Part shown: positions 9,646 through 27,899 of the stretch, in pieces
Layout: each line of letters opens with the position of its first letter
Numbering within the stretch: the stretch's first letter is position 1
NCBI GenBank assembly: GCA_964566925.1
Contig: CAZMIZ010000005.1
Span: forward strand, 184-64,183
Origin: an uncultured Gammaproteobacteria bacterium
GTDB lineage: Bacteria > Patescibacteriota > Microgenomatia > PFEM01 > DATLAM01
DNA: 64,000 nucleotides
Direction of reading: 5' to 3'
Notes under the pieces: model-generated
Told to the model about the DNA's origin: nothing
Databases searched by the model: none
What the model saw: only the letters and a program-made list of their open reading frames with translations
Position numbers and translations under genes: made by a program

Positions 9646-9695
9646 AGTTTAAGTATGACAGATAAATCTGACGGCGTCAACTTGGCCCGCCTGAA

Positions 9696-9738
9696 CTTAC
9701 TTTTCGCCTTTTGGGTTCTATTCGAACACGGCTCAAAG
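9696..9738 (-). repeat. Copy (a) of the ~45-nt dispersed element; a near-exact inverted copy of the rRNA-spacer copy at 44234-44276
   Basis: cttacttttcgccttttgggttctattcgaacacggctcaaag(agcg) compared with the reverse complement of 44231-44276 (ccgctctttgagccgttttcgaatagaacccaaaggcgaaaagtaagg). Confidence 0.5.
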
Positions 9739-11119
9739 AGCGTTTTCCGGCGGGTTTGCGCCCTGTATCGAACTTTGTTCTGGTTCAGGGCTTGACAAAA
9801 AATGTCTTTTAGGCTAAAAAAAGACTACTTCTGCCCATTTTCCCTGCCTAAAATTGAGTCATTTTTCGATTCCTGCCTGGAGAGGAGTAAGAAATGCTTT
9901 TATGGGGAGCTTTTACCTTAGGTTTTTGTGTTGGCTCCATTCTTTTTTTTCATATCTTTGGCCAGGAGTATGAATAGTGGAAATTTTATAGGATTGTAAG
10001 ATCTTTAAATAATTAAGACCTGTAGTATTTAACTTATTAAATTCTTCAAGCTTAAGACAAGGCTCTCGTTTTTCTCAACTTTCACTAGTTTTAGAGAATG
10101 TTTGTCTTAGAATATTGTTCCGAGAATATCGGATTAAAGATAAAGATTTAAAAAAATCAGCCAAAATTATAGAAAACCAAAAACTAGATATTTTAATTTA
10201 TCTTAAATCATTTTTTGATATAGATTGAATAGGTGATTTTGGTCAAATTTTATAAAACTTAAATTTTATTTTTATAGGATAACAACTTTGAGTTAATTTT
10301 AGTCGACGAAATTTTCTTAATTTTTCGAAAGAGGAAAAAATAGACTATCAATTTAGGTCAAAAAGAGAATTAATATCTCAAAAAATAAAATAATAGAGCA
10401 ATAAGATTTTTAACCAAAAAAATGGACAAATTTAGTCAGTTTATTTTTTTTATTAAAATTAACAATTTTCTAGAATTTAATCCCCTTAATTGTTACTAGA
10501 AGATCTTTTATTTTCTAAATACTAAAATAAGTTGCCGGATTAAAAAAATTGATCTAAAAAAGTCCATTTTCGCCAAAGAGAGAATAGACCAGGAAATTTT
10601 ATTAATGGGGGCCTATTTTTGAAGAGTTTAATTGTTCATAATTCATTTTTTTATGGAAATATTTAGTTTTTCGTAGGTCAATTAAAGTGGCAATTTTTTT
10701 CAAAAAACAGCCCAAATCGTTTTCAATAAGCTTTTTTTGCTGAAATTTTTAGTATCCTCAGTCGTTAGTTTTTTGATCTTCTGACAGCCAATTTTTAGCT
10801 CTTTTTCGGACTAAACAGTTGAAATTATAGGACTTTTAAATAAAAGAAAAAAGAGATTAAAAAAAGAAAATAGGAAAGGGGTTTTTATTTTTGAAGAGTT
10901 TTCGATTTGGTTGATATCTAGACATTTTCATTCCCTCCGAAGTGCCCTAAAAGCCCGCTAAAAAGCCCCAAAATCGATTAAATTTTGTTTTGGGAGCACT
11001 AAAAAACTGATCTAAATTTGGCTGAAATTGCCTCTTGACAGAGAGTACCCGAATGATGGTAACATAAAAATAAACCTATAAGTATCTAATTATAAACAAG
11101 CCTTGGAGGGGAGAGGTTT

Positions 11120-14100
11120 GTGGCTAAAAACCTGCCCAGAGCGAAAAAACTTTCAATTCTCCTTTCTTTTATTTGGAAAAACCCTTCTTTTGGTTTAGAC
11201 CGGATTTCAATTGAACTTTCAATTGAACTTTCTGATAAAAAGGGCAGAAAAGTCTTTTCAAGAAGCGGAATTCAGAAAGCTTTAACCAGGCTCGGGTTAA
11301 ATACGACTAAAAAGAGGCGAGCTTGGGCAAGAGGGATAACTACCGCCGAAGCCGCAAAGAAGTTTGCTGAGCTGGTGGCAACCAAGTTTTCAGGGAGATT
11401 GACGCCTGAAAAGCGGTTAGAGATGATCAGGCTGGTTGAACAAAAAGAAATGACCGCTAGCCGGGCTGCTCAGGCCTGTGGAGTTTCCCGAAAAAGTTTC
11501 TATAAATGGCAAAAGCGCTATTTGGCTTCAGCTCCAGGTAGGGAATATCAAGCAGTTTGTGATCAAAAACCGGCTATTGAAAAACGCTGGAATCAATTAA
11601 CGAATAAGCAGGAAGAGGCCATTCTTAAAATCGTTCGGGAGCATCCAGATTATTCCACCCATAAAGTTGCGCAAATATTGGCAGATATCGGCAATCACGG
11701 AGTTCAGAACGCTTTTGAGAGGTTAAATCTTAATACCTACGAAAAACGCTTAGCCTATGCTCAAGCCCCTCAACCAGTTATCACTCCTGTTACAAGAGTG
11801 CTGGGTTGGTTTAAGTCACTCCTGGATAGAATTCCAGCTATTTCTCCTCTTCCTCCTCCAATCAAACAAAAAATTGCCACTTTAACTCATCCTTTTGCTT
11901 TTAGCCTCTTTTTTTCAATTGTTTTCTCCACTTTTTTTCTTTTTTGGTTTGATCTCATCATTCGGGCGCCCACTCTGAGTGCTAAACTTGGCTTTATTTT
12001 TGCTTCAGCTTCATTATTGGTTGGCGGGTTTTTCTTTATCTACTCAATGAAATACTACCTGACTCTAGCGATTGTTCTTTCTTTTTCTCGCCAAACCCAA
12101 GAAGAAAGGGGAGGCTACACCTTTAGCCTGAAAGGGAGAATGAATGGCCCCACTTCGCCAGGGGCTACGCGGGGTAACGGCAATAGTGGATGGTTGTTAA
12201 GAATCTTTGGTTTAGGAAACGGGAATGGCCCTGAAGAAAAGGGAAAGATAGTTCAGGCTGGTGGTCTTCAGCCTTCTTTAGATCACATTAAACTGAAGCG
12301 GTATCCTTTTGTTTCAATTCATCTGCCCTTCTTTAATGAAAAGAAGGTGGCGGAGAGGATTCTTAAAGCCTGTACGGCCATGGATTATCCCAGAGAGAGT
12401 TACGAAATTATTGTTTGTGATGATTCCAATGATGAGACTATTAATATTGTGCAAAGGTACGTAAAGAAGCACAACCAAACTCACCCCAAAGGGCCGAAGA
12501 TTAAGGTTCTTCATCGGCCCACCAGAGAGGGTTTTAAAGGTGGCGCCCTTTCTTATGCTTTGAAGAGCATGGATAAAAAGACGGAGTTCTGTGTGGTCTT
12601 TGATGCTGACTTTATCCCTTACCCAGACACTCTGGAACTGTTTGTCAAGTATTTCAAGGTGAACAATGGTCAGTCTGAGAACTACACCAGGGGCAAGATT
12701 GCCGTGGTGGGAGGTTATCAATGGCATGTTTTAAACAAATCAGAGAACTGGATCACCCGAGGAGTGAGAACGGAGTATGCTGGGAGCTACGTCATTGAAA
12801 GGCCTGGCAGAGAGATCTTGGGATTGCTAAAACAGATCTCTGGCTCAGTCTATATGATTAGAAGTGATGTCATCAAAAAGGTAGGCTGGGGTACGAGTAT
12901 TACTGAAGACTTCCAGTTAACCCTCAAGCTCTATGAGCAGGGCTACAAGGTGATCTACACCCCCTATGTTCAAGCCCCAGCCGAATGTGTTTCTACCCTG
13001 AAAAGGCTTATTAGACAACGGATGAGATGGGCCGAGGGACACAGCAACAATATTAGGAGGATGTTTTTACGACTCCTGGTTTCTCCTAAGTTGACTCTCA
13101 CAGAGAAACTAGAGCTTTTTTATCTTTCCCCTTACTATCTCCAGGCCGCCTTCTTCTTAGTCGGTACTTCCTGCTGGCTTTTAGCTGAGGCTGTTTTTAG
13201 GGTTAAGTTGCCTTTTTGGACCTCTCTTTGGGGCTGGTCTTTGGTTTTAACTAACTTTTTCTGTTTGCCCTTGGTGAATGCCGTGGGTTTGTTCCTAGAA
13301 GAAAGTGAAGAAAGAGACTATCTTGGTTTACTCTCTTTTATTTTTCTCTCCTACGTTCTCGTTCCCTTCCAGGCCTATGCTTCGGTAAAAGGCTTTCTGG
13401 AAAAAGAAGAAGGTCCTTGGTTTCGGACACCCAAGACAGGGAGGATTACCGACATCTTTACCCGGGGAAGATTCTACCGCTGGATTGCCGGAATTCTTCC
13501 AGGGAGAGGAGCTACCCCTGCCTATGCTGAGGCGACAACAGGGAAACAGCCCCCCAACTCTTATCTGGCTTTAGCGACAGCCAACAGTCAGTTTAGCTCT
13601 TTTGAAATCACGCCCAAGAGAAACCGCTTATGGGGTAAATTGGCGCTTTTGTTGGTGGCGGGAATCAGTTCAAGCCTTTCCTATTTTGGTAATCGGATTC
13701 CTCAGGGTGTGATTGCCAACCTGCCTATTCAAGCCAGAGTCGAGGTGGCTGGTTCTCAGCCTAGTTTCATAATAGATCAAGCCATTTTTTCTCAAATCCT
13801 TAGTCTGTTTAAGCCAAAGCAGGCCTTAGCAGTCACCTCTGGACTCAAGGATGCCCTTTTGGCTGGACAGCCAGTTTCCCTGGAGAACTTCAAAGGCTTG
13901 GCGCTTTTCTTAACTCTTTTAAGCTTGAGCCTTTTGGTTTATTTGCTAAAAAGAAAGAGAAGATTTGTTAAAAAACTTTTACGACCGGCTTTTGTGACCA
14001 CTCTTGTCTTAATATGGCTTTTGACCAGCTTTCCCCCTGTTTGGTTTACCCCTCGCTTTCCACCGAAAATTAAAAAAGCTCTGGCCTACGACTATGACGA

Positions 14101-16339
14101 GACTTATAGCTTTGATACTCTGGCGGCCAATGAAAACGATTTTATCTGGGATGGTCCGGACGTAGATGTTTTATCAGTAGAGAACACTGACGGTTCTTGG
14201 TGTTGGACAGATGTTGGCTCAACTTCAAGTAGCACCGGGCCGCCATCAGGAGTGGCCTGTGTTTATACGGAAACCTCATCACCAGTAGCCGTCGATGACG
14301 AGTTTTATATGACTCTTGCCGAGGCGAATGAAGTTAGTGCTACTACCTATGGTATCTATGTGACCTTCGATACCTGTACCTATGGCAATACATCAGCCCA
14401 TTTATATTTTGAAGCCTGGAATGGCTCTGGTTGGCAACCGATAGATGATTGGGCCGGTAATTCAACCACGACCTTTACATCTAGGGGTCCTTATGATTTT
14501 ACGGCATATAGCAATTCAGATTTTAGTATCAGGTTTCGAACTGTGGTAGCTGGGACGACATACACGAACGACATGGCCGTTGATGAGGTTCGAATTTATG
14601 GGGATTCGGCTAATGCTTCTCCGGCCGCCCCGACACTTCATAACGTTCCTTTTCCTAATGAAATGGTCTATGATACTACCCCTAACTTCGAATTTACCGG
14701 TTCGGACCCTGACGGCACGGCGGATATCATTTATCACATTCAAGTAGACGATGATCAGGCGTTTGGCAGCGTGATAGTTGAATGTGAATCAGATACCTCT
14801 TGTGCCACCGGCGATGGTGGTTTTACTAATACGGTGACTGGAGGTGATACTAGCCCGTTTAATGAGGGAGAAAAGATTAGATTTACGCCGACGACGACCC
14901 TTGCTAGTGGGACAACTTACTGGTGGCGAGTCAGGGCCGAGGATGATTCAGGCGGGGGTGGTTCAGGAAATTATGGTGATTGGACAACAGCCATTAGTTT
15001 CACCCCAAACTCTGGCTCTAGTCCTTATTCTGAGTGGTTCCAGACCACCGATGAACAGTTTGCTACTGGAACGCTGTCAGGCACAACGATAAGTGGATCG
15101 GATTCAGTAGAATTAGGCACCGCGATTACGGCCACTGGTGGGACAACCAGCGAATCAGGCGGTTACAAATTCCATACTTTTACCAGTAGTGGAACGTTTG
15201 AAGTGACGGCCGGATCAGGCGATGTTGAGGTGCTGGTGGTTGGTGGTGGCGCAGGAGGGGGGACCGGGGGAACCGCTAGCCGAGGTGGAGGAGGTGCTGG
15301 TGGGATTGTCTATGATTCAGCTTATGCTGTCGTAGTAGATACTTATACCGTGACAGTAGGCGTGGGGAGTGCCGGAGCGTCAGGCACCTCAACGGCGTCA
15401 GATAATGGAGGAGATTCAGTATTTGATGATTTGACTGCATTAGGTGGAGGAGGAGCAGGAATACATTTAGGCGTAGGAAAGGATGGTGGTTCTGGTGGTG
15501 GTGGTAGTGGTTGGTCCAGTACTGCGGGCGGTTCAGGTCTCCAGCCGGGATCAGCATCTGGGGGTTATGGTAATGATGGTGGGACTGCTAATAGCAATAG
15601 CGCTGCTCCTGGTGGTTCTGGTGGGGGAGGTGGAGCAGGGGCTACTGGTAGTAATGGTGCAGATGGCACAGGCGTGGGGGGCGCCGGAGGAGCCGGATTA
15701 GAGTTTTCTCAATTTAGCAGTGTCGGTGGTTCACCGGCTGGCTGGTTCGGTGGCGGTGGCGGTGGCGGAGCAGCCTCTGGAGGAACAGCTGGATCTGGTG
15801 GACAGGGAGGTGGAGGGGCTGGAGGAGCTGGAACAACTGGCAGTAATGGTGTAGCTAATACCGGTGGGGGTGGTGGTGGTTCAACAAGCACTGGTGGGTC
15901 TGGGGGTTCGGGAATTGTTATTATTAGATATCCTACTTCTGGTGGTTCTTCGGGTACTATCCAGTCAACTCAAATTGACTTTGGTTGGTTTAGTGGTTCA
16001 CCCTCGGATTGGAACGAAGTATATGTGGGGGTAACAACGACCAACGGCAGTATCACCATCGATATCCTGGATGAAAACGAATCTGATACTGGTTTAGGCT
16101 GCACTATTAGCGGTGGGAGTAGTTCTTGTACGGTTGATATTTCGAGTTTAGATCCTGCGGGGGATGAGACCCAAATTTACATTTTGGCGACGCTTAATGA
16201 TGTGAGCGGGACACCCTATCTTAATGACTGGTTAGTGTCTGTTCCGGAAAATTTATGGCTATTTTTCGGCTTAGGCCTTTTTTTACCAGGCTTTATTAGA
16301 CGGAGAAAAAGGAAATTATTAGAAAGATTAATTAAGTAA
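11120..16339 (+). CDS. Giant multidomain membrane protein with five parts: IS-transposase-like HTH N-terminus, processive family-2 glycosyltransferase, multi-TM region, Gly-rich ectodomain, and a C-terminal VPEN-TM-RRRKRK sorting-signal-like tail
   Basis: 1739-aa continuous ORF with a GTG start and GGAGGGGAGAGG RBS. The HTH region is ...SRAAQACGVSRKSFYKWQKRY. GT2 motifs are VCDDSND (DD), VFDADF (DAD), SITEDFQ (TED) and QRMRWAEGH (QxxRW). The C-terminal Gly-rich region ends in GSGIVIIRY, and the final tail is SVPENLWLFFGLGLFLPGFIRRRKRK. Confidence 0.75.
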   Translation: MAKNLPRAKKLSILLSFIWKNPSFGLDRISIELSIELSDKKGRKVFSRSGIQKALTRLGLNTTKKRRAWARGITTAEAAKKFAELVATKFSGRLTPEKRLEMIRLVEQKEMTASRAAQACGVSRKSFYKWQKRYLASAPGREYQAVCDQKPAIEKRWNQLTNKQEEAILKIVREHPDYSTHKVAQILADIGNHGVQNAFERLNLNTYEKRLAYAQAPQPVITPVTRVLGWFKSLLDRIPAISPLPPPIKQKIATLTHPFAFSLFFSIVFSTFFLFWFDLIIRAPTLSAKLGFIFASASLLVGGFFFIYSMKYYLTLAIVLSFSRQTQEERGGYTFSLKGRMNGPTSPGATRGNGNSGWLLRIFGLGNGNGPEEKGKIVQAGGLQPSLDHIKLKRYPFVSIHLPFFNEKKVAERILKACTAMDYPRESYEIIVCDDSNDETINIVQRYVKKHNQTHPKGPKIKVLHRPTREGFKGGALSYALKSMDKKTEFCVVFDADFIPYPDTLELFVKYFKVNNGQSENYTRGKIAVVGGYQWHVLNKSENWITRGVRTEYAGSYVIERPGREILGLLKQISGSVYMIRSDVIKKVGWGTSITEDFQLTLKLYEQGYKVIYTPYVQAPAECVSTLKRLIRQRMRWAEGHSNNIRRMFLRLLVSPKLTLTEKLELFYLSPYYLQAAFFLVGTSCWLLAEAVFRVKLPFWTSLWGWSLVLTNFFCLPLVNAVGLFLEESEERDYLGLLSFIFLSYVLVPFQAYASVKGFLEKEEGPWFRTPKTGRITDIFTRGRFYRWIAGILPGRGATPAYAEATTGKQPPNSYLALATANSQFSSFEITPKRNRLWGKLALLLVAGISSSLSYFGNRIPQGVIANLPIQARVEVAGSQPSFIIDQAIFSQILSLFKPKQALAVTSGLKDALLAGQPVSLENFKGLALFLTLLSLSLLVYLLKRKRRFVKKLLRPAFVTTLVLIWLLTSFPPVWFTPRFPPKIKKALAYDYDETYSFDTLAANENDFIWDGPDVDVLSVENTDGSWCWTDVGSTSSSTGPPSGVACVYTETSSPVAVDDEFYMTLAEANEVSATTYGIYVTFDTCTYGNTSAHLYFEAWNGSGWQPIDDWAGNSTTTFTSRGPYDFTAYSNSDFSIRFRTVVAGTTYTNDMAVDEVRIYGDSANASPAAPTLHNVPFPNEMVYDTTPNFEFTGSDPDGTADIIYHIQVDDDQAFGSVIVECESDTSCATGDGGFTNTVTGGDTSPFNEGEKIRFTPTTTLASGTTYWWRVRAEDDSGGGGSGNYGDWTTAISFTPNSGSSPYSEWFQTTDEQFATGTLSGTTISGSDSVELGTAITATGGTTSESGGYKFHTFTSSGTFEVTAGSGDVEVLVVGGGAGGGTGGTASRGGGGAGGIVYDSAYAVVVDTYTVTVGVGSAGASGTSTASDNGGDSVFDDLTALGGGGAGIHLGVGKDGGSGGGGSGWSSTAGGSGLQPGSASGGYGNDGGTANSNSAAPGGSGGGGGAGATGSNGADGTGVGGAGGAGLEFSQFSSVGGSPAGWFGGGGGGGAASGGTAGSGGQGGGGAGGAGTTGSNGVANTGGGGGGSTSTGGSGGSGIVIIRYPTSGGSSGTIQSTQIDFGWFSGSPSDWNEVYVGVTTTNGSITIDILDENESDTGLGCTISGGSSSCTVDISSLDPAGDETQIYILATLNDVSGTPYLNDWLVSVPENLWLFFGLGLFLPGFIRRRKRKLLERLIK
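12317..13071 (+). repeat. 755-bp block 100% identical to 20509-21263, inside the GT2 domains of the two giant paralogs
   Basis: Base-by-base identity against an offset of 8192 bp. Flanking sequence is only ~75-85% identical. The antisense ORFs 12314-12727 and 20413-20919 encode identical peptides as a by-product. Confidence 0.8.
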
Positions 16340-16347
16340 TACGTTTC

Positions 16348-16959
16348 ATGGAGTCTATGGGAAGCTATAAAAAGAAGAAAGCCGACCGTGTCGGCCAAAA
16401 GCTTACTTTTAAATTGCTATTGGTGGGATTAAGCCTGATCTTAATGGCTTTGCCTCTGGTGGCGGCTGGTAGCTCTTTCTTAACTGATTTTTTAAACCAC
16501 GCCAACTGGTATCAACCAATCCAAAAATATATAGTTCCTTTTGAAGCCAAGTTAGTCGCCGCGGCTATCTATCCTCTAGGGATTAAAAGCAGAGTTAGTC
16601 CCAGTCAAACCACAGTTGCTTTTTATATGATCAAAGAAGATTCAGTGGTCCCGGTCGATTTGGCTTGGAATTGTTTGGGCTGGCAAAGCATGCTTTTGTT
16701 AATCGTTTCCTTAATAGCCGGATTAAGAGGTAATTTTACCAATATTTCAAGGCTGGAATGTATTGTCTTTGGTTTTTTTGGCACCCTTTTAATTAATGTT
16801 TTCCGGATGAGCCTGGTAGCGGCTGGAATTTATTATATCAACACCTTCTTTGCTATGATTGTCCATGATTATCTAATGGCTTTAATGGCCATTGCCTGGC
16901 TGATTTTCTTCTGGTGGTTTAGCTATGCCTTTATTCTGGAGGAGAAAGTAGATAGTTAG
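16348..16959 (+). CDS. Exosortase/archaeosortase-family-like polytopic membrane protein (candidate processing enzyme for the VPE-CTERM tails)
   Basis: 203 aa with multiple TM helices. The NCLGWQSM motif (compare exosortase CSGLRSL, the active-site Cys) and LINVFRMSL motif (compare the conserved N..R) are present. The gene lies 8 nt downstream of giant gene 1. Confidence 0.5.
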   Translation: MESMGSYKKKKADRVGQKLTFKLLLVGLSLILMALPLVAAGSSFLTDFLNHANWYQPIQKYIVPFEAKLVAAAIYPLGIKSRVSPSQTTVAFYMIKEDSVVPVDLAWNCLGWQSMLLLIVSLIAGLRGNFTNISRLECIVFGFFGTLLINVFRMSLVAAGIYYINTFFAMIVHDYLMALMAIAWLIFFWWFSYAFILEEKVDS

Positions 16960-16999
16960 GCAATAGGCAGTAGGCAGTAGATTGTAGTAGGATAAAGTT

Positions 17000-17368
17000 A
17001 TGAAGATTAAGACTTATAAAGATCTAACTGTTTGGCAGAAGTCTTTTAAGTTAGCTCTTGAGGTTTATAAAGTTACCAAAAAATTTCCTAGATCAGAGCT
17101 TTACGGCCTGACTTCTCAAATAAGAAGGGCCGCTTTTTCTATTCCGTCTAACATTGCCGAAGGATATGCCCGTCATCGTTTAGCCGAATATATTCAGTTT
17201 TTAAGAATTGCCTTTGCTTCAGGTGCCGAACTTGAAACACAGTTGTTAATTGCTAAAGAAACAAACTTATTGAGGGGTAAAGATTTTCAACGACTAAACA
17301 GCCTTTTAAGTGAAGTCATGAAGATGCTTAACGTGTTAATGAAAAAACTAAAAGAGGCAAAACATTAA
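17000..17368 (+). CDS. Four-helix-bundle protein (TIGR02436; the family named '23S rRNA-intervening-sequence protein')
   Basis: 122 aa. Has the hallmark motifs DLTVWQKS...L, PRSELYGLTSQIRRAA.SIPSNIAEGY and ..Ar.SGAELETQL. Confidence 0.75.
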   Translation: MKIKTYKDLTVWQKSFKLALEVYKVTKKFPRSELYGLTSQIRRAAFSIPSNIAEGYARHRLAEYIQFLRIAFASGAELETQLLIAKETNLLRGKDFQRLNSLLSEVMKMLNVLMKKLKEAKH

Positions 17369-17417
17369 TGCCTAATCACTATTGCCTAATTAACTATTAT
17401 CTAGTGCCTAAATTCTA

Positions 17418-18857
17418 ATGCCTATTTATCCCGCCCAGACATCAATGATGACCATCCAGATTGCCTTGGCCCGCTTTTTAGAGCAGGGGGGTGATATTCT
17501 GGGCAATTATCCTTACTGGTATTTAGGAACGACTCCTTATCGCTATTTAACCGGCCCGATTTTACCTTTTCTCCTGGCTGGCATTCACCAAGCTCTACCC
17601 CAGCTTTCATTATTTACTATTTTCTATTTACTAATTACTCTTACCTGGTTATTGGGTGCCGGAGGAGTTTACTTGTTAATCAGAGAACTGAGGGGAAAGC
17701 GTCTTAGCGCCGTTCTCGCGGCCCTTCTTTATCTTTTTGGCCCAGTTATACCCTTGACCTTCCGTTTCTCTAACGGCCTTTCTCTAATAGCCTTTTCTTT
17801 TTTACCTTTTATCCTGGCTCTTTATTCGCGTTTCCTAAAAGGGTGGAGTCGGAAGCTAACTGCTCTTTTATCTTTGGCGATTACTTTTCTTTTCCTTTTA
17901 GATTCCCTGGTTATCCCCACCATGGTTTTAGGGATGGCCGCTGTTTTCCTAAGCCAAGTTGGCTGGAAAAAACCCGAGGAGAAGATAAAAAGAACCCTAG
18001 TCCCTATTGCCTATTGCCTAATCCTTGCTACCCTCTGGTACACCCCTGGCTATTGGCTGGCTCTTTTAGGGGCGCCTTCTTTAGCCGGTAAAGGATTGGG
18101 TGAGGTGATGATTTGGTTAGGCAAACTTCTGCCCACGATAATTGCTTTTAGCGTTGCCCTTGTTTCGGTTAAATTTTTCAAAAAGAAAAACCAGCTACGC
18201 GATTTTTGTTTTTATTGGCTTTTGGTATTTCTTTGCCTATCTTTGCTTAGGTTTTTGGCAGACCCTGATTTTTGGTTAGACTGGATTGCTTATGGCACCG
18301 AGATCCAGTTTGGCCTGGCAATAGCTCTGGCTTTGATTGTCCCTGCGCTCTTCTCAAAACTATTCACTCTTCGCTATTCACTCTTCGCTATTATCTTTGC
18401 CTATTGCCTAATGCCTATTGCCTGGCTATTTCTCTTTAACCAATATGTTCTTAGCACTCTCCAAACAGACATTACCCAAACAGTAGAGTACCGAATTAGC
18501 AAACAATTATCAGAGACTGCTGACCCTGGCGAGCGAGTCTTCTTATCTGGAACCACTGCTTTCTGGTTAAATGCTTTTCCTGCCAGCTGGCGGATTCCCC
18601 AGGTCCGAGGTGGGGTTGATCAAGCGTCAATTGACCCCGAATGGCGAAGAGCGACTTGGGAAATAAGAGAGGGGGTTGATCTTGAGAAAACTCTTGAATG
18701 GCTAAAAAAGCTTAGGGTTGCCTATGTTGTGGTTCATACCCCAGATTCAGAAGAGTTTTATCATGATTTTGTTTATCCGGAGAAGTTTGAGGGAGGAGAA
18801 GGGTTAGAAAAGATTTACGATCAAAACGGAGATAGAATCTACCGGGTAATGAATTGA
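17418..18857 (+). CDS. Polytopic membrane protein with a soluble C-terminal domain, possibly a GT-C-type glycosyltransferase
   Basis: 479 aa with more than 10 hydrophobic helices. Lies in the context of the glycan locus. The coding sequence contains reiterated cctattgcc motifs. Confidence 0.45.
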   Translation: MPIYPAQTSMMTIQIALARFLEQGGDILGNYPYWYLGTTPYRYLTGPILPFLLAGIHQALPQLSLFTIFYLLITLTWLLGAGGVYLLIRELRGKRLSAVLAALLYLFGPVIPLTFRFSNGLSLIAFSFLPFILALYSRFLKGWSRKLTALLSLAITFLFLLDSLVIPTMVLGMAAVFLSQVGWKKPEEKIKRTLVPIAYCLILATLWYTPGYWLALLGAPSLAGKGLGEVMIWLGKLLPTIIAFSVALVSVKFFKKKNQLRDFCFYWLLVFLCLSLLRFLADPDFWLDWIAYGTEIQFGLAIALALIVPALFSKLFTLRYSLFAIIFAYCLMPIAWLFLFNQYVLSTLQTDITQTVEYRISKQLSETADPGERVFLSGTTAFWLNAFPASWRIPQVRGGVDQASIDPEWRRATWEIREGVDLEKTLEWLKKLRVAYVVVHTPDSEEFYHDFVYPEKFEGGEGLEKIYDQNGDRIYRVMN

Positions 18858-18859
18858 AA

Positions 18860-19162
18860 TCATTTAATCAATCCGAAGATAATGGCTGAGGCGATGAGAA
18901 CAGCTACTAAGGAACTGATAATTGCCGCAACAACTAACTGATTGGCAATCGCCGATAATCTCTTGGCAGGAGTTTCTTTAGCTCCTTTGCGGGCTCCCAT
19001 TATTTCGTTAAGTTGCTTTTTGGTGTAATAGCGACGATTAGTCGGGGAGCGAATCGCTTTTATTTTTCCTCTTTTTCCCCAGCGCCGGAGAGTGTCTCGA
19101 GAGACACCAAGATATTTAGCGGCTTCACCGATGGAGACCCATTGAGCTTTATCTTCAGCCAT
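18860..19162 (-). CDS. Membrane-tethered excisionase/MerR-type HTH DNA-binding protein
   Basis: 100 aa. The HTH_17-like region is SIGEAAKYLGVSRDTLRRWGKRGKIKAIRSPTNRRYYTKKQL, followed by a C-terminal TM helix LVVAAIISSLVAVLIASAIIFGLIK. Divergent from giant gene 2. Confidence 0.6.
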   Translation of the reverse strand: MAEDKAQWVSIGEAAKYLGVSRDTLRRWGKRGKIKAIRSPTNRRYYTKKQLNEIMGARKGAKETPAKRLSAIANQLVVAAIISSLVAVLIASAIIFGLIK

Positions 19163-19243
19163 AATTTCCTATTTTTGCCTAAATAAATTTTTAGAAATTA
19201 TTTAGCTTTGCCTATTTTTAAGGATAAGTTAAAAAATAGTCTT

Positions 19244-19269
19244 TGTCAAGGCGAAAATGACCCTTGACA
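19244..19269. promoter_or_regulatory. Perfect 8-bp inverted repeat TGTCAAGG-N10-CCTTGACA overlapping a TTGACA -35-like hexamer, between the HTH gene and giant gene 2
   Basis: tgtcaaggcgaaaatgacccttgaca. A candidate operator for the adjacent HTH protein. No clean -10 box could be found. Confidence 0.3.
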
Positions 19270-19395
19270 TTATATATCCAGGTAATGTTAACATGAGAAA
19301 ATAAGACTAGCAAAGATATGCAAAGGTCTTAAAGTGTTTACATTAAGCCTGCCCTGGGACTAGTCAGCCGAGTCAGGCAGGAATAGGGAAAGTCC

Positions 19396-22300
19396 GTGCC
19401 CGCCAAACTTAATAAGAAAGAAAGATTAAGACTCATTGAACGAGTAATCATTAAGGGCGAACCAGTTACTAAGGTTTGTCAAGAAGCTAAAATTTCTCGA
19501 ACTCTTTTTTATCGTTGGCTGAAACGCTACTCGGCTGAAGGAAAAGTTACTTCTAGAGCTCCAGGGAGGCCTATTAAAAAAACTCCTCCTAAAATCAAGA
19601 AAAAGATAACTCCATTTAAAAAACTTTCTCCTCAAAAAAAGCTAGAAATGGTGGAGCAGGTGGTCAAATACCATCAACCGGTTAGTAAGGTTTGTCTCGA
19701 TTTTCGTCTCTCCAGACCCAGCCTCTATAAATGGCTTAAACGCTATCATTTGGCCCAGAAAGATAAAAAACTTGAGGCCATGGAGGATAAGAAACCGCAA
19801 ATAAGTCGTTATTCCCGCCAAACTCCAGCAATGTATGAAAAAGTTGTTCTAGATGCGGTGGCTCAACACCCTCAACTTGGAGTTAAAAGAATTCTTGAAG
19901 TTTTACCAAGAATTGCCGATAAACCCATCATCGGCTATCATGGGGTACAAAACATCCTTCGTCGGCATGATTTAAACACCTTTCAAAAGCGATTAGATTA
20001 TGCTCAAACTCAAATCACGCCGGTAACTAGGCTTATCTCATTTTTTGAAGAACTTGGCGCTCGCTTCATTGTTTTGCCAGCTGAGACTCGAACTAAGACA
20101 ATTAGATTTGCGGCGATAGCTCTTTTGACTACTTTTTCGACCATTTTTGTTTTAGGGGTTCTAGGCCATTTTGCCATCATTGTCGGTGCCGCTCCAATTC
20201 CGTCCCGAATTGGGCTTTTTCTGGCGACAAGCGCCCTTTTAATTGGTTCTTTCTTTTTTGCTTATTCGATTAAATATTACTTGACCTTAGCGGTGGTTCT
20301 TTCTTTTTCCCGCCAAGCAGGAGAGGAGGGAATGGGAATTGGTTTGAAAACTGAAATTAAAAAGACTAGCCGCGATTTGCCAGCTAGCGGCTGGCTTCAA
20401 AAAATATTTGGGCTAGGGAATGGAGAAGAAAGGCAGGAAACGATTCAAGCTGGAGGTCTTCAGCCTTCTTTGGATCATATCAAGCTGAAGCGGTATCCCT
20501 TTGTTTCGATTCATCTGCCCTTCTTTAATGAAAAGAAGGTGGCGGAGAGGATTCTTAAAGCCTGTACGGCCATGGATTATCCCAGAGAGAGTTACGAAAT
20601 TATTGTTTGTGATGATTCCAATGATGAGACTATTAATATTGTGCAAAGGTACGTAAAGAAGCACAACCAAACTCACCCCAAAGGGCCGAAGATTAAGGTT
20701 CTTCATCGGCCCACCAGAGAGGGTTTTAAAGGTGGCGCCCTTTCTTATGCTTTGAAGAGCATGGATAAAAAGACGGAGTTCTGTGTGGTCTTTGATGCTG
20801 ACTTTATCCCTTACCCAGACACTCTGGAACTGTTTGTCAAGTATTTCAAGGTGAACAATGGTCAGTCTGAGAACTACACCAGGGGCAAGATTGCCGTGGT
20901 GGGAGGTTATCAATGGCATGTTTTAAACAAATCAGAGAACTGGATCACCCGAGGAGTGAGAACGGAGTATGCTGGGAGCTACGTCATTGAAAGGCCTGGC
21001 AGAGAGATCTTGGGATTGCTAAAACAGATCTCTGGCTCAGTCTATATGATTAGAAGTGATGTCATCAAAAAGGTAGGCTGGGGTACGAGTATTACTGAAG
21101 ACTTCCAGTTAACCCTCAAGCTCTATGAGCAGGGCTACAAGGTGATCTACACCCCCTATGTTCAAGCCCCAGCCGAATGTGTTTCTACCCTGAAAAGGCT
21201 TATTAGACAACGGATGAGATGGGCCGAGGGACACAGCAACAATATTAGGAGGATGTTTTTACGGTTAATGTTGGGAAGGGAAAAGAGAGATGGTCAAGGA
21301 CGGAAAACTGGTTGGATTCCCAGCCCTTTAACTTTAGGAGAGAAACTAGAGCTTCTTTATTTAACTCCTTATTATCTTCAGGCTTTTTTCTTTTTGGCGG
21401 GGACCCTCTCCTGGCTTTTAGCCGAAGCTGTTTTTAGGGTTAAGTTGCCTTTTTGGACCTCTCTTTGGGGGTGGTCTTTGGTTTTAACCAACTTCTTTTG
21501 TTTACCTCTGGTCAATGCGGTTGGTTTGTTCTTAGAAGAGAGCGAGGAAAGAGATTACTTAGGTATCTTTTCGTTTACCATTCTTTCTTACGTTTTAGTT
21601 CCTTTCCAGGCCTATGCCTCAGTTAAAGGTTTTCTAGAGAAGGAAGAAGGACCCTGGTTTCGGACGCCTAAAACGGGAAGAATTACCGATATCTTTACCC
21701 GAGGGAGATTTTATAGATGGATTGCCGGGATCTTGCCGGGGAGAGGAGCTGTCCCTGCCTATGCTGAGGCAACAACGGAGAAACATCTCTCTAACTCTTA
21801 TCTAGCCTTAGCAACCGCTAACCATCGCTTTAACTCTTTTGAGATTAGGCCCAAGAGAAACCGCTTTTGGGGTAAGTTGGCCCTTTTTTTGGTGGTAGCC
21901 ATCAATTCCCTTCTTTCTTTTTTTGGTAACCAGATTCCTCAGGGAGCAATCACCAATCTGCCTATCCAAGCGAGAGTGGAAGTGATTAGTTCCCAGCCTA
22001 GCCTACCAATCAATCAGGCTACTCTTTCCCAAATCCTTAGCCTGTTTAAACCAAGACAAGCCTTGGCGGCTACCTCTGGTCTTAAGGAGGCTCTTTTAGC
22101 TGGTGAGCCGGTTTCCTTGGAGAACTTCAAAGGCTTGGTTCTTTTCTCAACCCTTTTAAGCTTAAGTTTTTTGATTTATTTGGCCAGAAAGAAAAGAACC
22201 TTTGTCAAAAAACTTTTGCGGCCGATTTTTGTTTTTGTTTTGGTTGCCTCCTGGCTTCTAACCAGTTTTCCGGCTATTTGGTTTAACCCCCGTTTCCCTC

Positions 22301-24828
22301 CGAAAATTAAAGAAGTTGAAGCGACTGATTATGACGATGTAGTTTTAGCCACCAATGGGGGGCCTGATTACAGAATCCAATTTAACGGCAATATTACTGA
22401 AGAAATTAAGAGTCAAGGAACTTCAGGGGCCCCGGATAGTTACGTGACCAACATTATTCCCAACGATGATGGACAATGCGCAGATTATGCCGCTTCGGCA
22501 GAAACGGTTATTACTAATGCGAGCGATGTTAACAGTAGTACCACCACCAGAAAAACAGTTTCTTTTTGGGTGGAAATTGACACCTTTGGAACAGGTACAG
22601 GCTCTAATGCCAGAAACATCTGGGAAGAGGGAGGGGCAACAAATTGGTTCGGCGCCTACACGGCCAACAATGATGAACTTTATATCATTATCGGTGAGAG
22701 TGGTGCCAATAAAGGGTATTGTTATACTGACGGATTGTCAACCGGAACACTTTATCATGTGGTGATGCAATGGCAGGGGTCTGATGACGCGATGGAATTA
22801 TGGATCAACGGCTCTTTAGTTGATTCTACTACCGCCTCAATAGGTTCAGAGTTAAGTTCGCATACCGGAGACTGGGAAATTGGCGGCAATGCTGAGTCTT
22901 TCGACCACACCGACACTGACATCGGCCTACTATTTGACGGAAAAATAGCTGACTACTCTTACTGGGCGGAGGCAGCCGATTTTTTAACGGAAGCGGAAAT
23001 CGTGGCTATTTATGAAGCCGGGGCAGTGGTTGCCCCCTCCGCCCCGACTCTTTATAACGATGACGGCGGCTCCAATCAAATCGCTTTTAATAATATTAGG
23101 GAGAATGATACTTCCCCCATTATCCGGGCTTCAGCCACCCACGATACCACCTTTAATACTTTTTTCGTCGAATTTAACACTGCCTCAGATTTCAGCGGGA
23201 CGGCTTACACCGAAACCTTCTCTGGGACTTACTCATCAGGGACTGCCTACAATCTCCAAACCACTGGTTCTTTAAATTTGCCCTCAAACGACGGAGTGAC
23301 TTATTACGTTCGTGTTAAGGCTTCGGATGATGGGGGGACTGATTATGGTGATTGGTCAACGACTTTGGCCTGCTGTGGCACCTGGACTTATACGTATACT
23401 AGTTCAGCTGGAGATTCTGAGTGGCTTCAAACAACCGATGAGCAGTTCGACACAGGGACGATGGTATCGACGCAAACAAGCGGTTCTGATTCGGTGGAAA
23501 TAGTGGGAAGCGAGACGACTATTTATCTTACTTCTGGTACGACTTGGAATGTGCCAGCTGACTGGAATTCGTCTAATAATACTATTCGCGCAATCGGAGC
23601 AGGTGGAGACGGGGGTTTGTCTACTGCGAGTTCTAATTCTGGTGGCGGTGGGGGTGGTGGTGAATATCGGGCGGCAACCAACGTCACTCTGACACCTAGT
23701 TCAACGGTGGACATTAATATTCCCTCTGGTGGAGATGGCAGCTCTGCTGATGGTGCCTGGATCGAAAACAATAGCGATACTATTGTAGTTGAAGCTAAGA
23801 ATGGTGGTAATGCTTCAGGTACCACCGCTGGTAGTGGCGGAACAGGCGGAACCGGAACAGCCGCAAATTATGATGGCGGTGCTGGAGGTGCAGGTGCTTC
23901 TAATTCAACAGCGTCAGGCGGTGGGGGTGGCGGCTCGGCAGGACCGAGCGGAGCAGGTAAAGCAGGCGGCGATGGTGTTGGTTCTACTAACTATGGTGCT
24001 GGAGGAGGTGGCGGCAGTAATGGTGGATCTTCAACTGTCGGTGAAACACCAACCGGCCCTGACGGCGGGGATGGAGGTGTAGGTACTGGCGGCACTGGTG
24101 GAGGCGCTGGTGGAGTTGAACATACAAGTGGCGGCTCTAATGGAACTGATGGCGGCGGCGGTGGCGGCGGCGCTGATACTCAGTCAAGTACTCCTTCCCC
24201 AGGTGGTAATGGTGCTTGCGACACTGCTTGGGACTCAACTCATGGAGCCTGCGGCGGTGGTGGTGGCGGCGGTGGCGCCAGTGGAACTGCTGGCACTGCT
24301 GATAGAGACGGAGGAACAGGCGGAACTTATGGAGGCGGCGGTGGCGGCTGCGGCATATCAGGTTCCTTAGATACCGGAGAATGCGATGGCACTGGAGTAG
24401 GTGGTCAGGGGATTATCGTAATCACCTATACTCCTGATGCTTCAAGCGGCACGATTATGTCGCCGGAAATTGACTATGACTGGTTTGATGGGGCTTCAGC
24501 CTGGAATGATGTTTACTGGAGCGAGGATGAAACCCATGGAACGATTATGGTTCAGGTTTATTACAATGATTGCGGCACGATTATTCCTGATGAAGATTTA
24601 AGCGGCAATTCCAGTGGATTTACCACTGGTCCGATTGACATCTCCGGTCTTTCTACTTCGACTTATAATGAAATTTGCTTCAAAGCCACTTTAGCCGATT
24701 CCGGGGGGAGTCCCTATCTCGAAGATTGGGGGGTGAGTGTCCCAGAAAGCTTATGGCTGTTTTTTGGCTTGGGCCCTTTTTTACCATTTGTGTCCAGGTT
24801 AAAAAGAAAGAGAAGAAAAAAGTTGTGA
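19396..24828 (+). CDS. Second giant paralog: two transposase-like HTH repeats, a processive GT2, a multi-TM region, LamG/ConA-like plus Gly-rich ectodomains, and a VPES-TM-KRKRRKK tail
   Basis: 1810 aa with a GTG start. HTH repeats are ..ISRTLFYRWLKRY and ..LSRPSLYKWLKRY. The GT2 core is identical to paralog 1 over 755 bp. The LamG-like region is TVSFWVEID...MELWINGSLVDS. The Gly-rich region ends in GQGIIVITY, and the tail is SVPESLWLFFGLGPFLPFVSRLKRKRRKKL. Confidence 0.75.
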   Translation: MPAKLNKKERLRLIERVIIKGEPVTKVCQEAKISRTLFYRWLKRYSAEGKVTSRAPGRPIKKTPPKIKKKITPFKKLSPQKKLEMVEQVVKYHQPVSKVCLDFRLSRPSLYKWLKRYHLAQKDKKLEAMEDKKPQISRYSRQTPAMYEKVVLDAVAQHPQLGVKRILEVLPRIADKPIIGYHGVQNILRRHDLNTFQKRLDYAQTQITPVTRLISFFEELGARFIVLPAETRTKTIRFAAIALLTTFSTIFVLGVLGHFAIIVGAAPIPSRIGLFLATSALLIGSFFFAYSIKYYLTLAVVLSFSRQAGEEGMGIGLKTEIKKTSRDLPASGWLQKIFGLGNGEERQETIQAGGLQPSLDHIKLKRYPFVSIHLPFFNEKKVAERILKACTAMDYPRESYEIIVCDDSNDETINIVQRYVKKHNQTHPKGPKIKVLHRPTREGFKGGALSYALKSMDKKTEFCVVFDADFIPYPDTLELFVKYFKVNNGQSENYTRGKIAVVGGYQWHVLNKSENWITRGVRTEYAGSYVIERPGREILGLLKQISGSVYMIRSDVIKKVGWGTSITEDFQLTLKLYEQGYKVIYTPYVQAPAECVSTLKRLIRQRMRWAEGHSNNIRRMFLRLMLGREKRDGQGRKTGWIPSPLTLGEKLELLYLTPYYLQAFFFLAGTLSWLLAEAVFRVKLPFWTSLWGWSLVLTNFFCLPLVNAVGLFLEESEERDYLGIFSFTILSYVLVPFQAYASVKGFLEKEEGPWFRTPKTGRITDIFTRGRFYRWIAGILPGRGAVPAYAEATTEKHLSNSYLALATANHRFNSFEIRPKRNRFWGKLALFLVVAINSLLSFFGNQIPQGAITNLPIQARVEVISSQPSLPINQATLSQILSLFKPRQALAATSGLKEALLAGEPVSLENFKGLVLFSTLLSLSFLIYLARKKRTFVKKLLRPIFVFVLVASWLLTSFPAIWFNPRFPPKIKEVEATDYDDVVLATNGGPDYRIQFNGNITEEIKSQGTSGAPDSYVTNIIPNDDGQCADYAASAETVITNASDVNSSTTTRKTVSFWVEIDTFGTGTGSNARNIWEEGGATNWFGAYTANNDELYIIIGESGANKGYCYTDGLSTGTLYHVVMQWQGSDDAMELWINGSLVDSTTASIGSELSSHTGDWEIGGNAESFDHTDTDIGLLFDGKIADYSYWAEAADFLTEAEIVAIYEAGAVVAPSAPTLYNDDGGSNQIAFNNIRENDTSPIIRASATHDTTFNTFFVEFNTASDFSGTAYTETFSGTYSSGTAYNLQTTGSLNLPSNDGVTYYVRVKASDDGGTDYGDWSTTLACCGTWTYTYTSSAGDSEWLQTTDEQFDTGTMVSTQTSGSDSVEIVGSETTIYLTSGTTWNVPADWNSSNNTIRAIGAGGDGGLSTASSNSGGGGGGGEYRAATNVTLTPSSTVDINIPSGGDGSSADGAWIENNSDTIVVEAKNGGNASGTTAGSGGTGGTGTAANYDGGAGGAGASNSTASGGGGGGSAGPSGAGKAGGDGVGSTNYGAGGGGGSNGGSSTVGETPTGPDGGDGGVGTGGTGGGAGGVEHTSGGSNGTDGGGGGGGADTQSSTPSPGGNGACDTAWDSTHGACGGGGGGGGASGTAGTADRDGGTGGTYGGGGGGCGISGSLDTGECDGTGVGGQGIIVITYTPDASSGTIMSPEIDYDWFDGASAWNDVYWSEDETHGTIMVQVYYNDCGTIIPDEDLSGNSSGFTTGPIDISGLSTSTYNEICFKATLADSGGSPYLEDWGVSVPESLWLFFGLGPFLPFVSRLKRKRRKKL
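20509..21263 (+). repeat. Partner of the 755-bp identical block at 12317-13071
   Basis: See 12317-13071. Confidence 0.8.
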
Positions 24829-24843: not shown

Positions 24844-26166
24844 ATGGCTATTAAAAAATCTTTTAATTATCCAGAGAAAGAGGAAACTCTGGCTATTAAG
24901 CAGGAAGAAAGAATTCGCCGGTTTTATCATCTTCGCCGGCGATTAGCAAAATTTTCGCCTCGAGGTTGGGTGGTCGTCTTAGAATTTGTCGGTTTGATCG
25001 GCCTATTTTTCACCAGCCTTTGGCTGCTCCTTCCTTTTTTTGGCCGGCCAGATCAGATTAATGTTTTTTCAGCTCCAGTGGTTCCGCTTTTGGTTAGTTT
25101 AACCGAAAAATTAATTCCCTTTTCGTACGGAGTGAGAATTTGGTTGCTGGCTTTTCTGGCCCTTTTCCCTCTTTCCTTTTATTACTTCGTCCGAGAGATT
25201 TCCAGTCGAAAATTGATTGGTTTTATCTCGAGCTTTATTGTGATTCTTCCTTTTGGAGTTTTTCTGCCTATCAGAGTTAATCTTAGTCTTTTAGCCCAAG
25301 ATGGTGCTCATATGACCTCGCTGGCTTTTACCCCCTTAGTTTGTCTTCTTTTAGTTCGCTTCTTACGTCAAGGCGGTTTTTGGACAGGGGTTCTCTCTGC
25401 TTTTGGAACGACTTTGGTAGCCCTTACTTCTCCAATTGGCTTCGTGGTTCTCGCTCTTTTTATGGGGGTGGTCACTTTTTCGGAGATGCTTTTGGGTCAA
25501 GGGAGATTAAAGATCTTGAGATTTTTGGTGGTTCTGATTTTGGCGGTTGGTTTTTCCGCTTTTTGGTATAATCCCCAATTCGCTCTTTTGACCTTACAAT
25601 CTCCTCAGGGTCAACTTTTAAAAAAAACACTTTCTAATCTTCTGCCGGTTTCTTTTTTCCTCTTACCCATTTTAGGTGTTTTTGGCTTTTTACTTTTTGA
25701 GAATCGGCCCCAGCTTCAACCGATGTTTATTGCTTTTTTCTTAACTATTGGCTTTGGCCTTTTTTCTATTGGGGCTGGCGTGGCCCATCCTTCACCATCG
25801 CGTTTTTTACCAGCCTTTGGTATTTCCCTGGCTTTTTTGCTGGGGATTTTAGTCACCGCTTTTTATGATTTTCTCCGGGCTTCGCCTAAACTTAAAAAAT
25901 TTAAAATCCCCACTTTTAGGCGGCAGTTAGCCGCTTTTGGTTTAATCTTCTTAGTTTTTACCTCTATTTTTATCATGATCACCGCTTTTAGCCAAAATCT
26001 CTGGGGGCTTGAAGAGTCTCGGGTTTTAGGCCTAACCGCGGAGCAAAAAGTGGGCGTTTGGGACATTAAAGAGAAAACTGGTTTAGTAGAAAGCGTTTTT
26101 GGCTACTTGATTACCAGTTTGACGGCCGCAGGCGTCATTATTTTAAAGTCAAGACTGGGAATTTAA
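24844..26166 (+). CDS. Polytopic membrane protein (~12 TM), possibly a GT-C-type glycosyltransferase or polymerase
   Basis: 440 aa and highly hydrophobic. First gene of the glycan locus. Confidence 0.45.
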   Translation: MAIKKSFNYPEKEETLAIKQEERIRRFYHLRRRLAKFSPRGWVVVLEFVGLIGLFFTSLWLLLPFFGRPDQINVFSAPVVPLLVSLTEKLIPFSYGVRIWLLAFLALFPLSFYYFVREISSRKLIGFISSFIVILPFGVFLPIRVNLSLLAQDGAHMTSLAFTPLVCLLLVRFLRQGGFWTGVLSAFGTTLVALTSPIGFVVLALFMGVVTFSEMLLGQGRLKILRFLVVLILAVGFSAFWYNPQFALLTLQSPQGQLLKKTLSNLLPVSFFLLPILGVFGFLLFENRPQLQPMFIAFFLTIGFGLFSIGAGVAHPSPSRFLPAFGISLAFLLGILVTAFYDFLRASPKLKKFKIPTFRRQLAAFGLIFLVFTSIFIMITAFSQNLWGLEESRVLGLTAEQKVGVWDIKEKTGLVESVFGYLITSLTAAGVIILKSRLGI

Positions 26167-27874: not shown

Positions 27875-27899
27875 GAGACTTTGTGCTAAAATTAAAAAG

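Follow-up and report, generated by a model that had tools for sequence, protein, structure and literature searches.

To our knowledge, exosortases are widespread and always encoded near polysaccharide genes, and both the attachment target of their substrates and the role of glycan synthesis are still unknown. The only experimentally studied part of the exosortase/archaeosortase family that we know of is the archaeosortase branch, exemplified by archaeosortase A (ArtA) of Haloferax volcanii, which depends on Cys, Arg, and His residues, removes the C-terminal transmembrane (TM) helix of proteins bearing a PGF-CTERM signal, and adds a lipid anchor. The nearest described system to the one considered here is XrtG/Firmicu-CTERM (TIGR03110, TIGR03111), in which the gene for the Firmicu-CTERM protein adjoins a small exosortase gene and two associated glycosyltransferase family 2 (GT2) genes (PMC12854382). 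Here, a comparable arrangement is described in a stretch of 64,000 nucleotides (positions 184 to 64,183 of contig CAZMIZ010000005.1, assembly GCA_964566925.1), referred to as the window. The window encodes two very large proteins—giant 1 and giant 2—that join a processive GT2 synthase to an ectodomain and end in the same tail, made up of a VPE motif, a TM helix, and a basic cluster, as well as a protein of 203 amino acids (aa) that belongs to the exosortase/archaeosortase family. It seems probable that these genes constitute a dedicated exosortase/archaeosortase-type cassette, whose enzyme would recognize the VPE-TM-basic tail of the giant, cleave at or near VPE, and probably transfer the C-terminus.

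A small enzyme of the exosortase/archaeosortase family

The 203-aa protein matches the NCBIfam model TIGR04178 with 24.8 bits against a curated cut-off of 23 (E 2e-5), the match extending over residues 104–191 of the protein and positions 2–91 of the 97-position model. Pfam PF09721 (Exosortase_EpsH) gave no match to the protein itself. On the strength of TIGR04178 and of its relatives, the protein can be placed in the exosortase/archaeosortase superfamily: all 75 aligned relatives, which are 35–77% identical to it, match TIGR04178 (best E 6.7e-11), and nine of them also match PF09721 (best E 1.8e-8). The proposal of such an enzyme in a first-pass annotation, made from the DNA letters without database searches, has thus been borne out by the model search. 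Among ~5.8 billion proteins searched, 106 homologues of ~190 aa were recovered; many have already been named ‘exosortase/archaeosortase family protein’ by the JGI and NCBI pipelines, and those with organism names come from Microgenomates-type bacteria belonging to the candidate phyla radiation (CPR). An exhaustive profile search of 1.84 billion representatives returned 483 clusters, counted at 50% identity, with E ≤ 1e-3, of which 71 reached E ≤ 1e-30. Weak matches to subfamily models occur among the 75 relatives—44 to XrtG (E < 0.01), 43 to ArtC, 23 to CrtC, and ten to XrtX—and no named exosortase subfamily model of NCBIfam is reached at its cut-off by the 203-aa protein or its relatives. Since the XrtG and XrtX models comprise 187 and 168 positions, respectively, an exosortase of ~200 aa is not unusual, and the earlier suggestion that the enzyme is exceptionally small had to be given up.

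Cys109, Arg153, and His173 (codons 16672–16674, 16804–16806, and 16864–16866), and also N150, are invariant in the 75-sequence alignment, where they form part of the invariant blocks W-N-C109-x-G-W-Q, N150-x-x-R153, and H173-D-Y. Cys, Arg, and His have been proposed as the catalytic triad of the exosortase/archaeosortase family (10.1101/2023.06.07.544157), a proposal backed by mutagenesis of ArtA (PMC6098224). C109, R153, and H173 agree with this triad as described in the literature, and all three lie within the residues matched by TIGR04178. The first-pass annotation had read a Cys/Arg/Asn triad from the motifs NCLGWQSM and LINVFRMSL; its Cys and Arg stand and its Asn is the invariant N150, whereas the literature gives His as the third member of the triad.

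An AlphaFold2 (AF2) model of the enzyme (pLDDT 84.5, pTM 0.74) proceeds from a long N-terminal helix and a second helix through a three-stranded sheet to a short, Cys-bearing helix and three more helices. The model suggests four TM helices together with an outer helix and the three-stranded sheet. A sequence search of the PDB with the profile of the enzyme family found nothing, and Foldseek returned nothing under E 0.2 when the AF2 model was compared with the PDB. Both results are in keeping with the fact that no exosortase is known to have had its structure solved.

The giant synthases and their C-terminal tail

From its N-terminus, giant 1 comprises a transposase-type helix-turn-helix (HTH) module, two TM helices, and a BcsA/PgaC-like processive GT2 domain with its TM channel region. 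After the channel follow a FRTPKTG loop, a TM helix, an extra TM hairpin, an ectodomain of ~720 aa with Ig-like and Gly_rich_2 domains (PF21722, E 4.5e-15), and the VPEN-TM-RRRKRK tail. The IS481/IS630/IS3-like HTH modules, one in giant 1 and two in giant 2, are encoded at 11120–11840 and 19396–20100. Both giants contain the motifs DDS, DAD, TED, and QRMRW, i.e., the D, DxD, TED, and QxxRW of processive membrane GT2 enzymes, located between TM helices, and match the GT2 families PF13641, PF00535, and PF13632 in Pfam. These motifs, like those of the enzyme, the open reading frames (ORFs) and their coordinates, the 8-nt spacing, and the tails, are all present as first annotated. The GT2 part aligns to Escherichia coli BcsA (7lby) across the catalytic motifs including QRxRW. 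BcsA (E 3e-14, TM-score 0.37) and hyaluronan synthases are also the top PDB folds for the core of giant 1, of which residues 241–1010 were modeled with AF2 (mean pLDDT 66, above 90 in the GT2 part). Equivalog cut-offs are not reached, with 85.5 versus 422 bits for PgaC, 74 versus 699 for CelA, and 23 versus 550 for NodC.

The synthase family comprises at least 1463 homologues, among which the fusion of HTH and GT2 is the rule, reflected in the JGI name ‘cellulose synthase.../transposase’. The joining of a membrane glycan synthase to DNA-binding domains of the transposase type is in itself a peculiar architecture. The FRTPKTG loop, which we take to resemble the cytosolic FxVTxK gating loop of BcsA, is invariant after the channel helices. 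In 45 family members, one TM helix is located 60–110 residues past this loop, and the ectodomain comes next; the extra TM hairpin is a feature of the window's own clade and leaves sidedness unchanged. Ectodomains vary in length from 300 to 2000 aa in the family, and those of giants 1 and 2 differ from each other, whereas the GT2 cores of the two share 85% nucleotide identity over ~1.9 kb. The assertion that the presumed substrates are fusions with a BcsA-like GT2 synthase is valid as a rule of the whole family and not as a peculiarity of the window. The description of the ectodomain as ‘LamG-like’ could not be confirmed, the only hint being a sub-threshold Pentaxin match (E 0.027) in giant 2, and the term ‘adhesin’ is likewise unverified. 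As a side observation, the Gly-rich regions (15170–15950 and 23900–24400), which are encoded by imperfect GGN-rich repeats and are 39% identical between the giants, constitute the shared part of the ectodomains, the remainder being different.

Both giants terminate in VSVPE[NS]LWLFFGLG..FLP.. and a Lys/Arg cluster, with the motif directly before the TM helix and the cluster after it, at the C-terminus. Beyond these two, no such tail was found in the six frames of the window. Because of the 85% nucleotide identity between the giants, the similarity of their tails alone proves little. A logo of 151 non-redundant tails reads [VI]-P-E-[NK]-φ-φ-L-L-L-x-x-A-P-F-I-P-x-φ-V...K-K-R (φ, hydrophobic), with V or I at position -1 in 89% and a conserved P-F-[IL]-P inside the helix that places P at +11 and +14. 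In 42 aligned giants, the P and E of the motif are at least 90% conserved, while the ectodomains are too variable for a consensus. In principle, the giants could be mis-assembled or read-through ORFs and their tails alike owing to a recent duplication of one gene, as the source is a metagenome assembly and the two genes share this identity over 1.9 kb. However, HTH, GT2, ectodomain, and tail occur as single ORFs in dozens of independent assemblies and in a family of at least 1463 members, and conservation of the tail extends to giants with unrelated ectodomains; an artefact has hardly any probability left and is refuted for practical purposes.

The likeness of the tail to CTERM signals, claimed at the outset, extends to the layout of motif, TM helix, and basic cluster, but not to a match with any curated model. 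None of the curated NCBIfam CTERM models is significant against the isolated tails; the best hits of the giant 1 tail are the C-terminal ends of three PEP-CTERM protein families (E 0.1–0.3), and the giant 2 tail hits nothing. Among the best 120 of the at least 1463 synthase homologues, 67 end in a short tail, ~22 in VPE[IF]P-TM-basic continued by a cytoplasmic extension of ~40 aa that ends in LDELPV, and most of the remaining ones are truncated. The many unrelated substrates characteristic of PEP-CTERM are not seen: the window holds two tails, both on paralogous giants, and in related loci the tail is found on the GT2 synthase family or on sortase fusions.

The giants also contain an internal element reminiscent of the tail—PVSLENF, 19 hydrophobic residues, and KRKRR—at ~13860–13970 in giant 1 and ~22100–22210 in giant 2. 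A TM helix comes next, and the element would be oriented like the genuine tail. It was rejected as a second cleavage site, since it lacks the Pro and is restricted to the window's own clade (L001–L003); in L004, the Glu is missing.

Gene linkage, natural fusions, and the proposed processing pathway

A scan of one genome per species yielded 68 loci encoding relatives of the 203-aa protein, which, where titles are informative, belong to Woese-, Curtiss-, Chisholm-, or Levybacteria or other Patescibacteria; several genomes carry more than one copy. An upstream ORF, i.e., one on the same strand ending at the sortase start, is readable in 60 loci, and clearly bears a [VIL]PE-hydrophobic-basic tail in 39 of them, or 43 if variants are included. 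The strict tail pattern is found in 25 of 71 sortase-adjacent ORFs and in 13 of 975 others (odds ratio 40, Fisher p = 2e-22), most of the 13 being genuine tails one gene away. Segment-wise phmmer comparison revealed that the HTH, TM-GT2, and post-GT2 segments are common to nearly all upstream giants, whereas the ectodomain of the giant is shared with the closest relative only. Of the giants with a complete C-terminus, almost all bear the tail and precede a sortase gene. The giants with extended tails (exemplified by P0116, P0127, P0158, and P0225; loci L069–L073) are followed instead by a gene for a ~620-aa membrane/TPR protein and one for a YfhO-family protein. Here, the sortase gene is not adjacent but resides in the same cluster, 5.6–8 kb downstream, in all three loci with sufficient flank, two loci whose flanks are short being left out of this count, and the notion that extended-tail giants do without the enzyme was rejected on these grounds. 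Related genomes could have carried the tail without an exosortase-like gene; instead, tail and enzyme occur together in them, mostly as adjacent genes and sometimes fused, so that the tripartite signal accompanies its presumed enzyme both by linkage and by fusion. As an aside, many of the cassette-bearing records of metagenome-assembled genomes (L001, L002, L006, L010, and others) are titled ‘uncultured Gammaproteobacteria’ or ‘Pseudomonadales’ (binchicken/TPA assemblies); on records with a Patescibacteria-type cassette, these titles are probably mislabels.

Enzyme and tail are fused in both orders. P0300 (946 aa) and P0344 (1227 aa) harbor, in a single ORF, the GT2 synthase, an ectodomain, IEVPEN, a TM helix, a basic linker, and the sortase domain. 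In P0270, P0280, P0281, P0288, P0313, and P0334 (~430–470 aa), the sortase comes first and is followed by a basic stretch, a TM helix, an ectodomain of ~250 aa, VV[PSD]E, a TM helix, and a basic tail; these sortase-first fusions carry no GT2 domain. Of the P-E pair, only the Glu never varies in the enzyme-tail fusions. The fusions stem from several independent assemblies: P0344 was found in two collections, and nine proteins, drawn from NCBI, ENA, JGI, and Logan assemblies and including one labeled Bathyarchaeota, make up the P0280 cluster. The absence of GT2 from the sortase-first fusions ties the enzyme to the tail independently of the synthase. This argues against the possibility that the enzyme acts on something else—a nascent glycan, a lipid carrier, or another protein—and neighbors the synthase merely because both serve one pathway. 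Such a possibility is suggested by the location of the enzyme gene in a large glycan locus, by the presence of one enzyme gene for two giants at the locus, and by the fact that the relation of enzyme and substrate is itself inferred. It appears very unlikely, however, given that the tail also has the tripartite form used by every characterized relative and that no further tail-bearing ORF exists in the window.

The fusions imply, in addition, that the N- and C-termini of the enzyme are cytoplasmic and that the VPE-type motif is outside. With both ends in the cytoplasm, Cys109, His173, and Arg153 would come to lie near the outer leaflet, as would VPE, with Cys109 at the start of TM2, Arg153 in the outer half of TM3, and His173 in the outer part of TM4. 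For the giant, the order of TM helices after FRTPKTG, hydropathy, the positive-inside rule, the fusions, and homology suggest that the ectodomain and VPE are outside and the terminal basic cluster inside, consistent with the outward-facing motif on which the first-pass annotation had relied. ArtA processes a tripartite signal that precedes a further domain (PMC6098224), so that cleavage can be reconciled with extended tails and with fusions.

Enzyme and tail in one chain are also typical of stable partners, and the 203-aa protein might be a non-proteolytic one, i.e., a stable subunit or assembly factor that binds the last TM helix of the giant, with the VPE...PFxP helix acting as a docking element and permanent anchor. 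Confinement of the tail to one protein family, in-helix conservation, with P at +11 and +14, as expected for a helix-helix interface, and the occurrence of extended cytoplasmic tails would suit such a role. On the other hand, complete invariance of Cys, Arg, and His across the 75 relatives, at their level of divergence, is unexpected for a purely structural subunit, conserved in-helix residues have been reported for signals cleaved by intramembrane enzymes as well (JDVT-CTERM), and the motif borders directly on the helix, just as it does in PEP-CTERM and PGF-CTERM. A purely structural partner is therefore considered unlikely.

If the cassette is of the exosortase/archaeosortase type, as seems probable, its operation can be envisaged as follows. 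The HTH and the BcsA-like GT2 catalytic domain of the giant would face the cytoplasm, with the TM channel region next to them. Beyond the cytoplasmic FRTPKTG loop and one TM helix, the large, variable ectodomain would be situated outside the cell, its far end held by the last TM helix with [VI]PE before it and the cytoplasmic Lys/Arg cluster after it. The enzyme, its Cys109, Arg153, and His173 positioned in the outer half of the membrane, would recognize the VPE-TM-basic tail and cut it, on the outer face, at the VPE motif or close to it. Sortase and ArtA provide the analogy for the next step, in which the freed C-terminus of the ectodomain would probably be passed to an acceptor, e.g., lipid, wall, or glycan. 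The ectodomain would stay on the synthase via its N-terminal side, the result being a remodeled or re-anchored surface domain rather than a released protein, and in the window one enzyme would serve two paralogous giants.

Several points weigh against this reading. The 203-aa protein exceeds the TIGR04178 cut-off by only 1.8 bits, with no direct match to PF09721, and the tails match no curated CTERM model. In the window and the related loci, the tail is seen on one synthase family and on sortase-tail fusions only, not on unrelated proteins, and could thus be a structural feature of that family instead of a portable sorting signal. In roughly one-fifth of the giants, the basic cluster is continued by the ~40-aa cytoplasmic extension, an unusual feature among such signals. 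The topology derives from hydropathy, the positive-inside rule, fusions, and homology, and cleavage, its site, the transfer, and the acceptor are all inferred. Moreover, an ectodomain that is still tethered through the synthase after cleavage makes the benefit of processing not obvious.

A more far-reaching version, which must be regarded as quite unlikely, would make the small enzyme a transpeptidase that joins the C-terminus of the ectodomain to the glycan extruded by the same polypeptide, or to the cell wall. If true, this would amount to a covalent protein-polysaccharide surface fiber rooted in its own synthase, with self-processing in cis in the naturally fused forms. It would explain in direct mechanistic terms why exosortases are, as has long been noted, associated with polysaccharide loci, and a major CPR lineage would prove to have an unrecognized type of cell-surface organelle, which might be coupled to DNA via the HTH.

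Surroundings of the cassette and comparison with described systems

Features of the locus, with coordinates in the window, strand, and the evidence or characteristics of each
Feature	Position	Strand	Evidence and remarks
Giant 1	11120–16339	+	1739 aa; ORF list, Pfam/NCBIfam domains
Giant 1 tail, candidate sorting/cleavage signal	16235–16336	+	VSVPEN-LWLFFGLGLFLPGFI-RRRKRKLLERLIK
Exosortase/archaeosortase-family protein, 203 aa	16348–16959	+	TIGR04178 match; starts 8 nt after giant 1
TIGR02436/PF05635 four-helix-bundle protein	17000–17368	+	NCBIfam/Pfam matches; probably an inserted passenger
Polytopic membrane protein, 479 aa, conserved neighbor	17418–18857	+	PF10131 E 0.023, below threshold; no NCBIfam match
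MerR-type HTH protein, 100 aa, C-terminal TM anchor	18860–19162	-	Pfam; divergent from giant 2
Giant 2	19396–24828	+	1810 aa; layout as giant 1, two HTH modules, different ectodomain
Giant 2 tail	24733–24825	+	VSVPES-LWLFFGLGPFLPFVS-RLKRKRRKKL
Polytopic membrane protein, 440 aa, conserved neighbor	24844–26166	+	No family matches in Pfam or NCBIfam
Remaining glycan/envelope locus	26166–38452	mixed	Pfam/NCBIfam matches

The window contains a single sortase-like ORF; the gene directly downstream of giant 2 is not a sortase gene. Homologues of the neighboring genes recur to varying degrees among the 68 loci, most often those of the 479-aa (32 loci) and 440-aa (24 loci) membrane proteins, the latter directly 3′ of the sortase gene in several loci, e.g., L006 and L063. 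Less frequent are the first GT4 gene (26166–27407) and a methyltransferase gene (28698–29504), with 17 loci each, a weakly GT-C-like 524-aa membrane protein (14), the TM-anchored MerR protein (12), and the four-helix-bundle gene (seven). Apart from the 524-aa protein, the distal part of the glycan/envelope locus encodes two GT4 enzymes, three S-adenosylmethionine-dependent methyltransferases, a 966-aa PF10131 PTPS_related membrane protein, and, on the minus strand, a GT2-methyltransferase protein.

Of the co-located genes named initially, those for the TIGR02436 protein and the TM-anchored HTH protein are present as described; the supposed GT-C-like protein of 479 aa may be GT-C/PTPS-related-like, its sub-threshold PF10131 match being the only one obtained. 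The TIGR02436 gene is not a conserved part. Repeats rich in TGCCTAT/TGCCTAA-type heptamers occur at 16952–16980, 17361–17390, 17993–18022, and 18390–18429; they bracket the four-helix-bundle gene in inverted orientation and recur inside the gene for the 479-aa protein. Because of these flanking inverted repeats, its low frequency, and its varying positions, the four-helix-bundle gene was rejected as a component of the system, and the sequence suggests a small inserted or mobile passenger. The TM-anchored MerR protein is probably a regulator of the giant gene; a MerR-type gene is found in the same divergent placement upstream of the giants in L069–L071.

Further observations concern the flanks. 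Upstream of giant 1 extends a 1.45-kb AT-rich stretch (9646–11119) with no ORF of at least 50 aa, the 10–12 kb bin having a GC content of ~33%. The corresponding position upstream of giant 2, and of several related giants, is occupied by a divergent gene for a TM-anchored MerR protein. An rRNA operon (42381–49626) is arranged in the order 16S, tRNA-Ile, tRNA-Ala, 23S, and 5S. The spacer between tRNA-Ile and tRNA-Ala is, at 1.86 kb, unusually long and includes ORFs of 246 aa (44408–45148) and 163 aa (45251–45742), and the 23S match measures 3052 nt versus a model of 2925 positions.

A search of the accessible literature found no paper on an exosortase in Patescibacteria, none among those listed that links exosortases to Microgenomates or Woesebacteria, and none describing the pairing of a tailed synthase with a mini-exosortase; the candidate phyla radiation papers that name an exosortase proved irrelevant. 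The claim of an undescribed system is accordingly tenable for the pairing, and for the fused synthase-substrate in particular, but has to be tempered, since the enzyme has already been named by annotation pipelines and XrtG/Firmicu-CTERM is a close analogue. In the cassette, one molecule is both the presumed sorting substrate and a processive glycan synthase; this offers a compact and testable connection of exosortases with the making of glycans and would overturn nothing. For reconstitution, the system is equally compact, with one ~200-aa enzyme, one defined tail, a built-in reporter, and enzyme-substrate fusions in both orders. The cassette is, in addition, conserved as part of the envelope in Microgenomates, a large uncultured lineage about whose surface biology and attachment to hosts next to nothing is known.

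With BcsA, PgaC, and the hyaluronan synthases, the giants share the catalytic motifs and have their best sequence and fold matches. They differ by the addition of the transposase-type HTH, the variable ectodomain, and a sorting-type tail, by scores far under the equivalog cut-offs, and by the lack of a PilZ domain, none having been detected in the giants by the Pfam scan. The enzyme and the tail relate to several sorting systems. PEP-CTERM/XrtA (EpsH) falls into the same superfamily (TIGR04178, PF09721), employs a tripartite signal in which PE borders directly on the TM helix and a basic cluster comes next, and is likewise encoded in an exopolysaccharide-type gene cluster. Unlike in PEP-CTERM, the third position of the present motif is taken by N, K, or Y and not by P, one or two substrates instead of many are associated with each enzyme, these substrates are polytopic synthases rather than secreted proteins with an N-terminal signal peptide, and the enzyme is shorter than the ArtC and CrtC models (274 and 278 positions). 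Microgenomates-type hosts are, moreover, presumed to lack an outer membrane, in contrast to the Gram-negative hosts of PEP-CTERM. The archaeosortases are approached through the weak ArtC matches of more than half of the relatives; they differ in that the motif is PGF or PEF and in that a single enzyme handles many substrates, namely S-layer proteins and further secreted proteins, and all scores of the present enzyme family are far under the archaeosortase-model cut-offs.

The likeness to XrtG/Firmicu-CTERM is the closest. Both are dedicated cassettes of a tailed protein, a small exosortase, and GT2, and, if the Microgenomates-type hosts indeed lack an outer membrane, both are found in monoderm hosts. 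Relatives of the 203-aa protein align with the XrtG model nearly end to end (in P0079, residues 47–182 with positions 46–181), and the GT2 part of the giants weakly matches TIGR03111 (E 1.5e-8), the 33.8 bits remaining below the cut-off of 363.95. Several differences exist. Individually scored relatives attain at most 26.4 bits against the XrtG cut-off of 102.75, and the 203-aa protein itself has no XrtG match at E ≤ 0.1. The lineage is Microgenomates (CPR) here and Firmicutes in the case of XrtG. The [VI]PE...PFxP tail matches no curated CTERM model and, judged by sequence, is a distinct class outside these models. Finally, glycosyltransferase and tailed substrate reside on one polypeptide, which carries an N-terminal HTH in addition.

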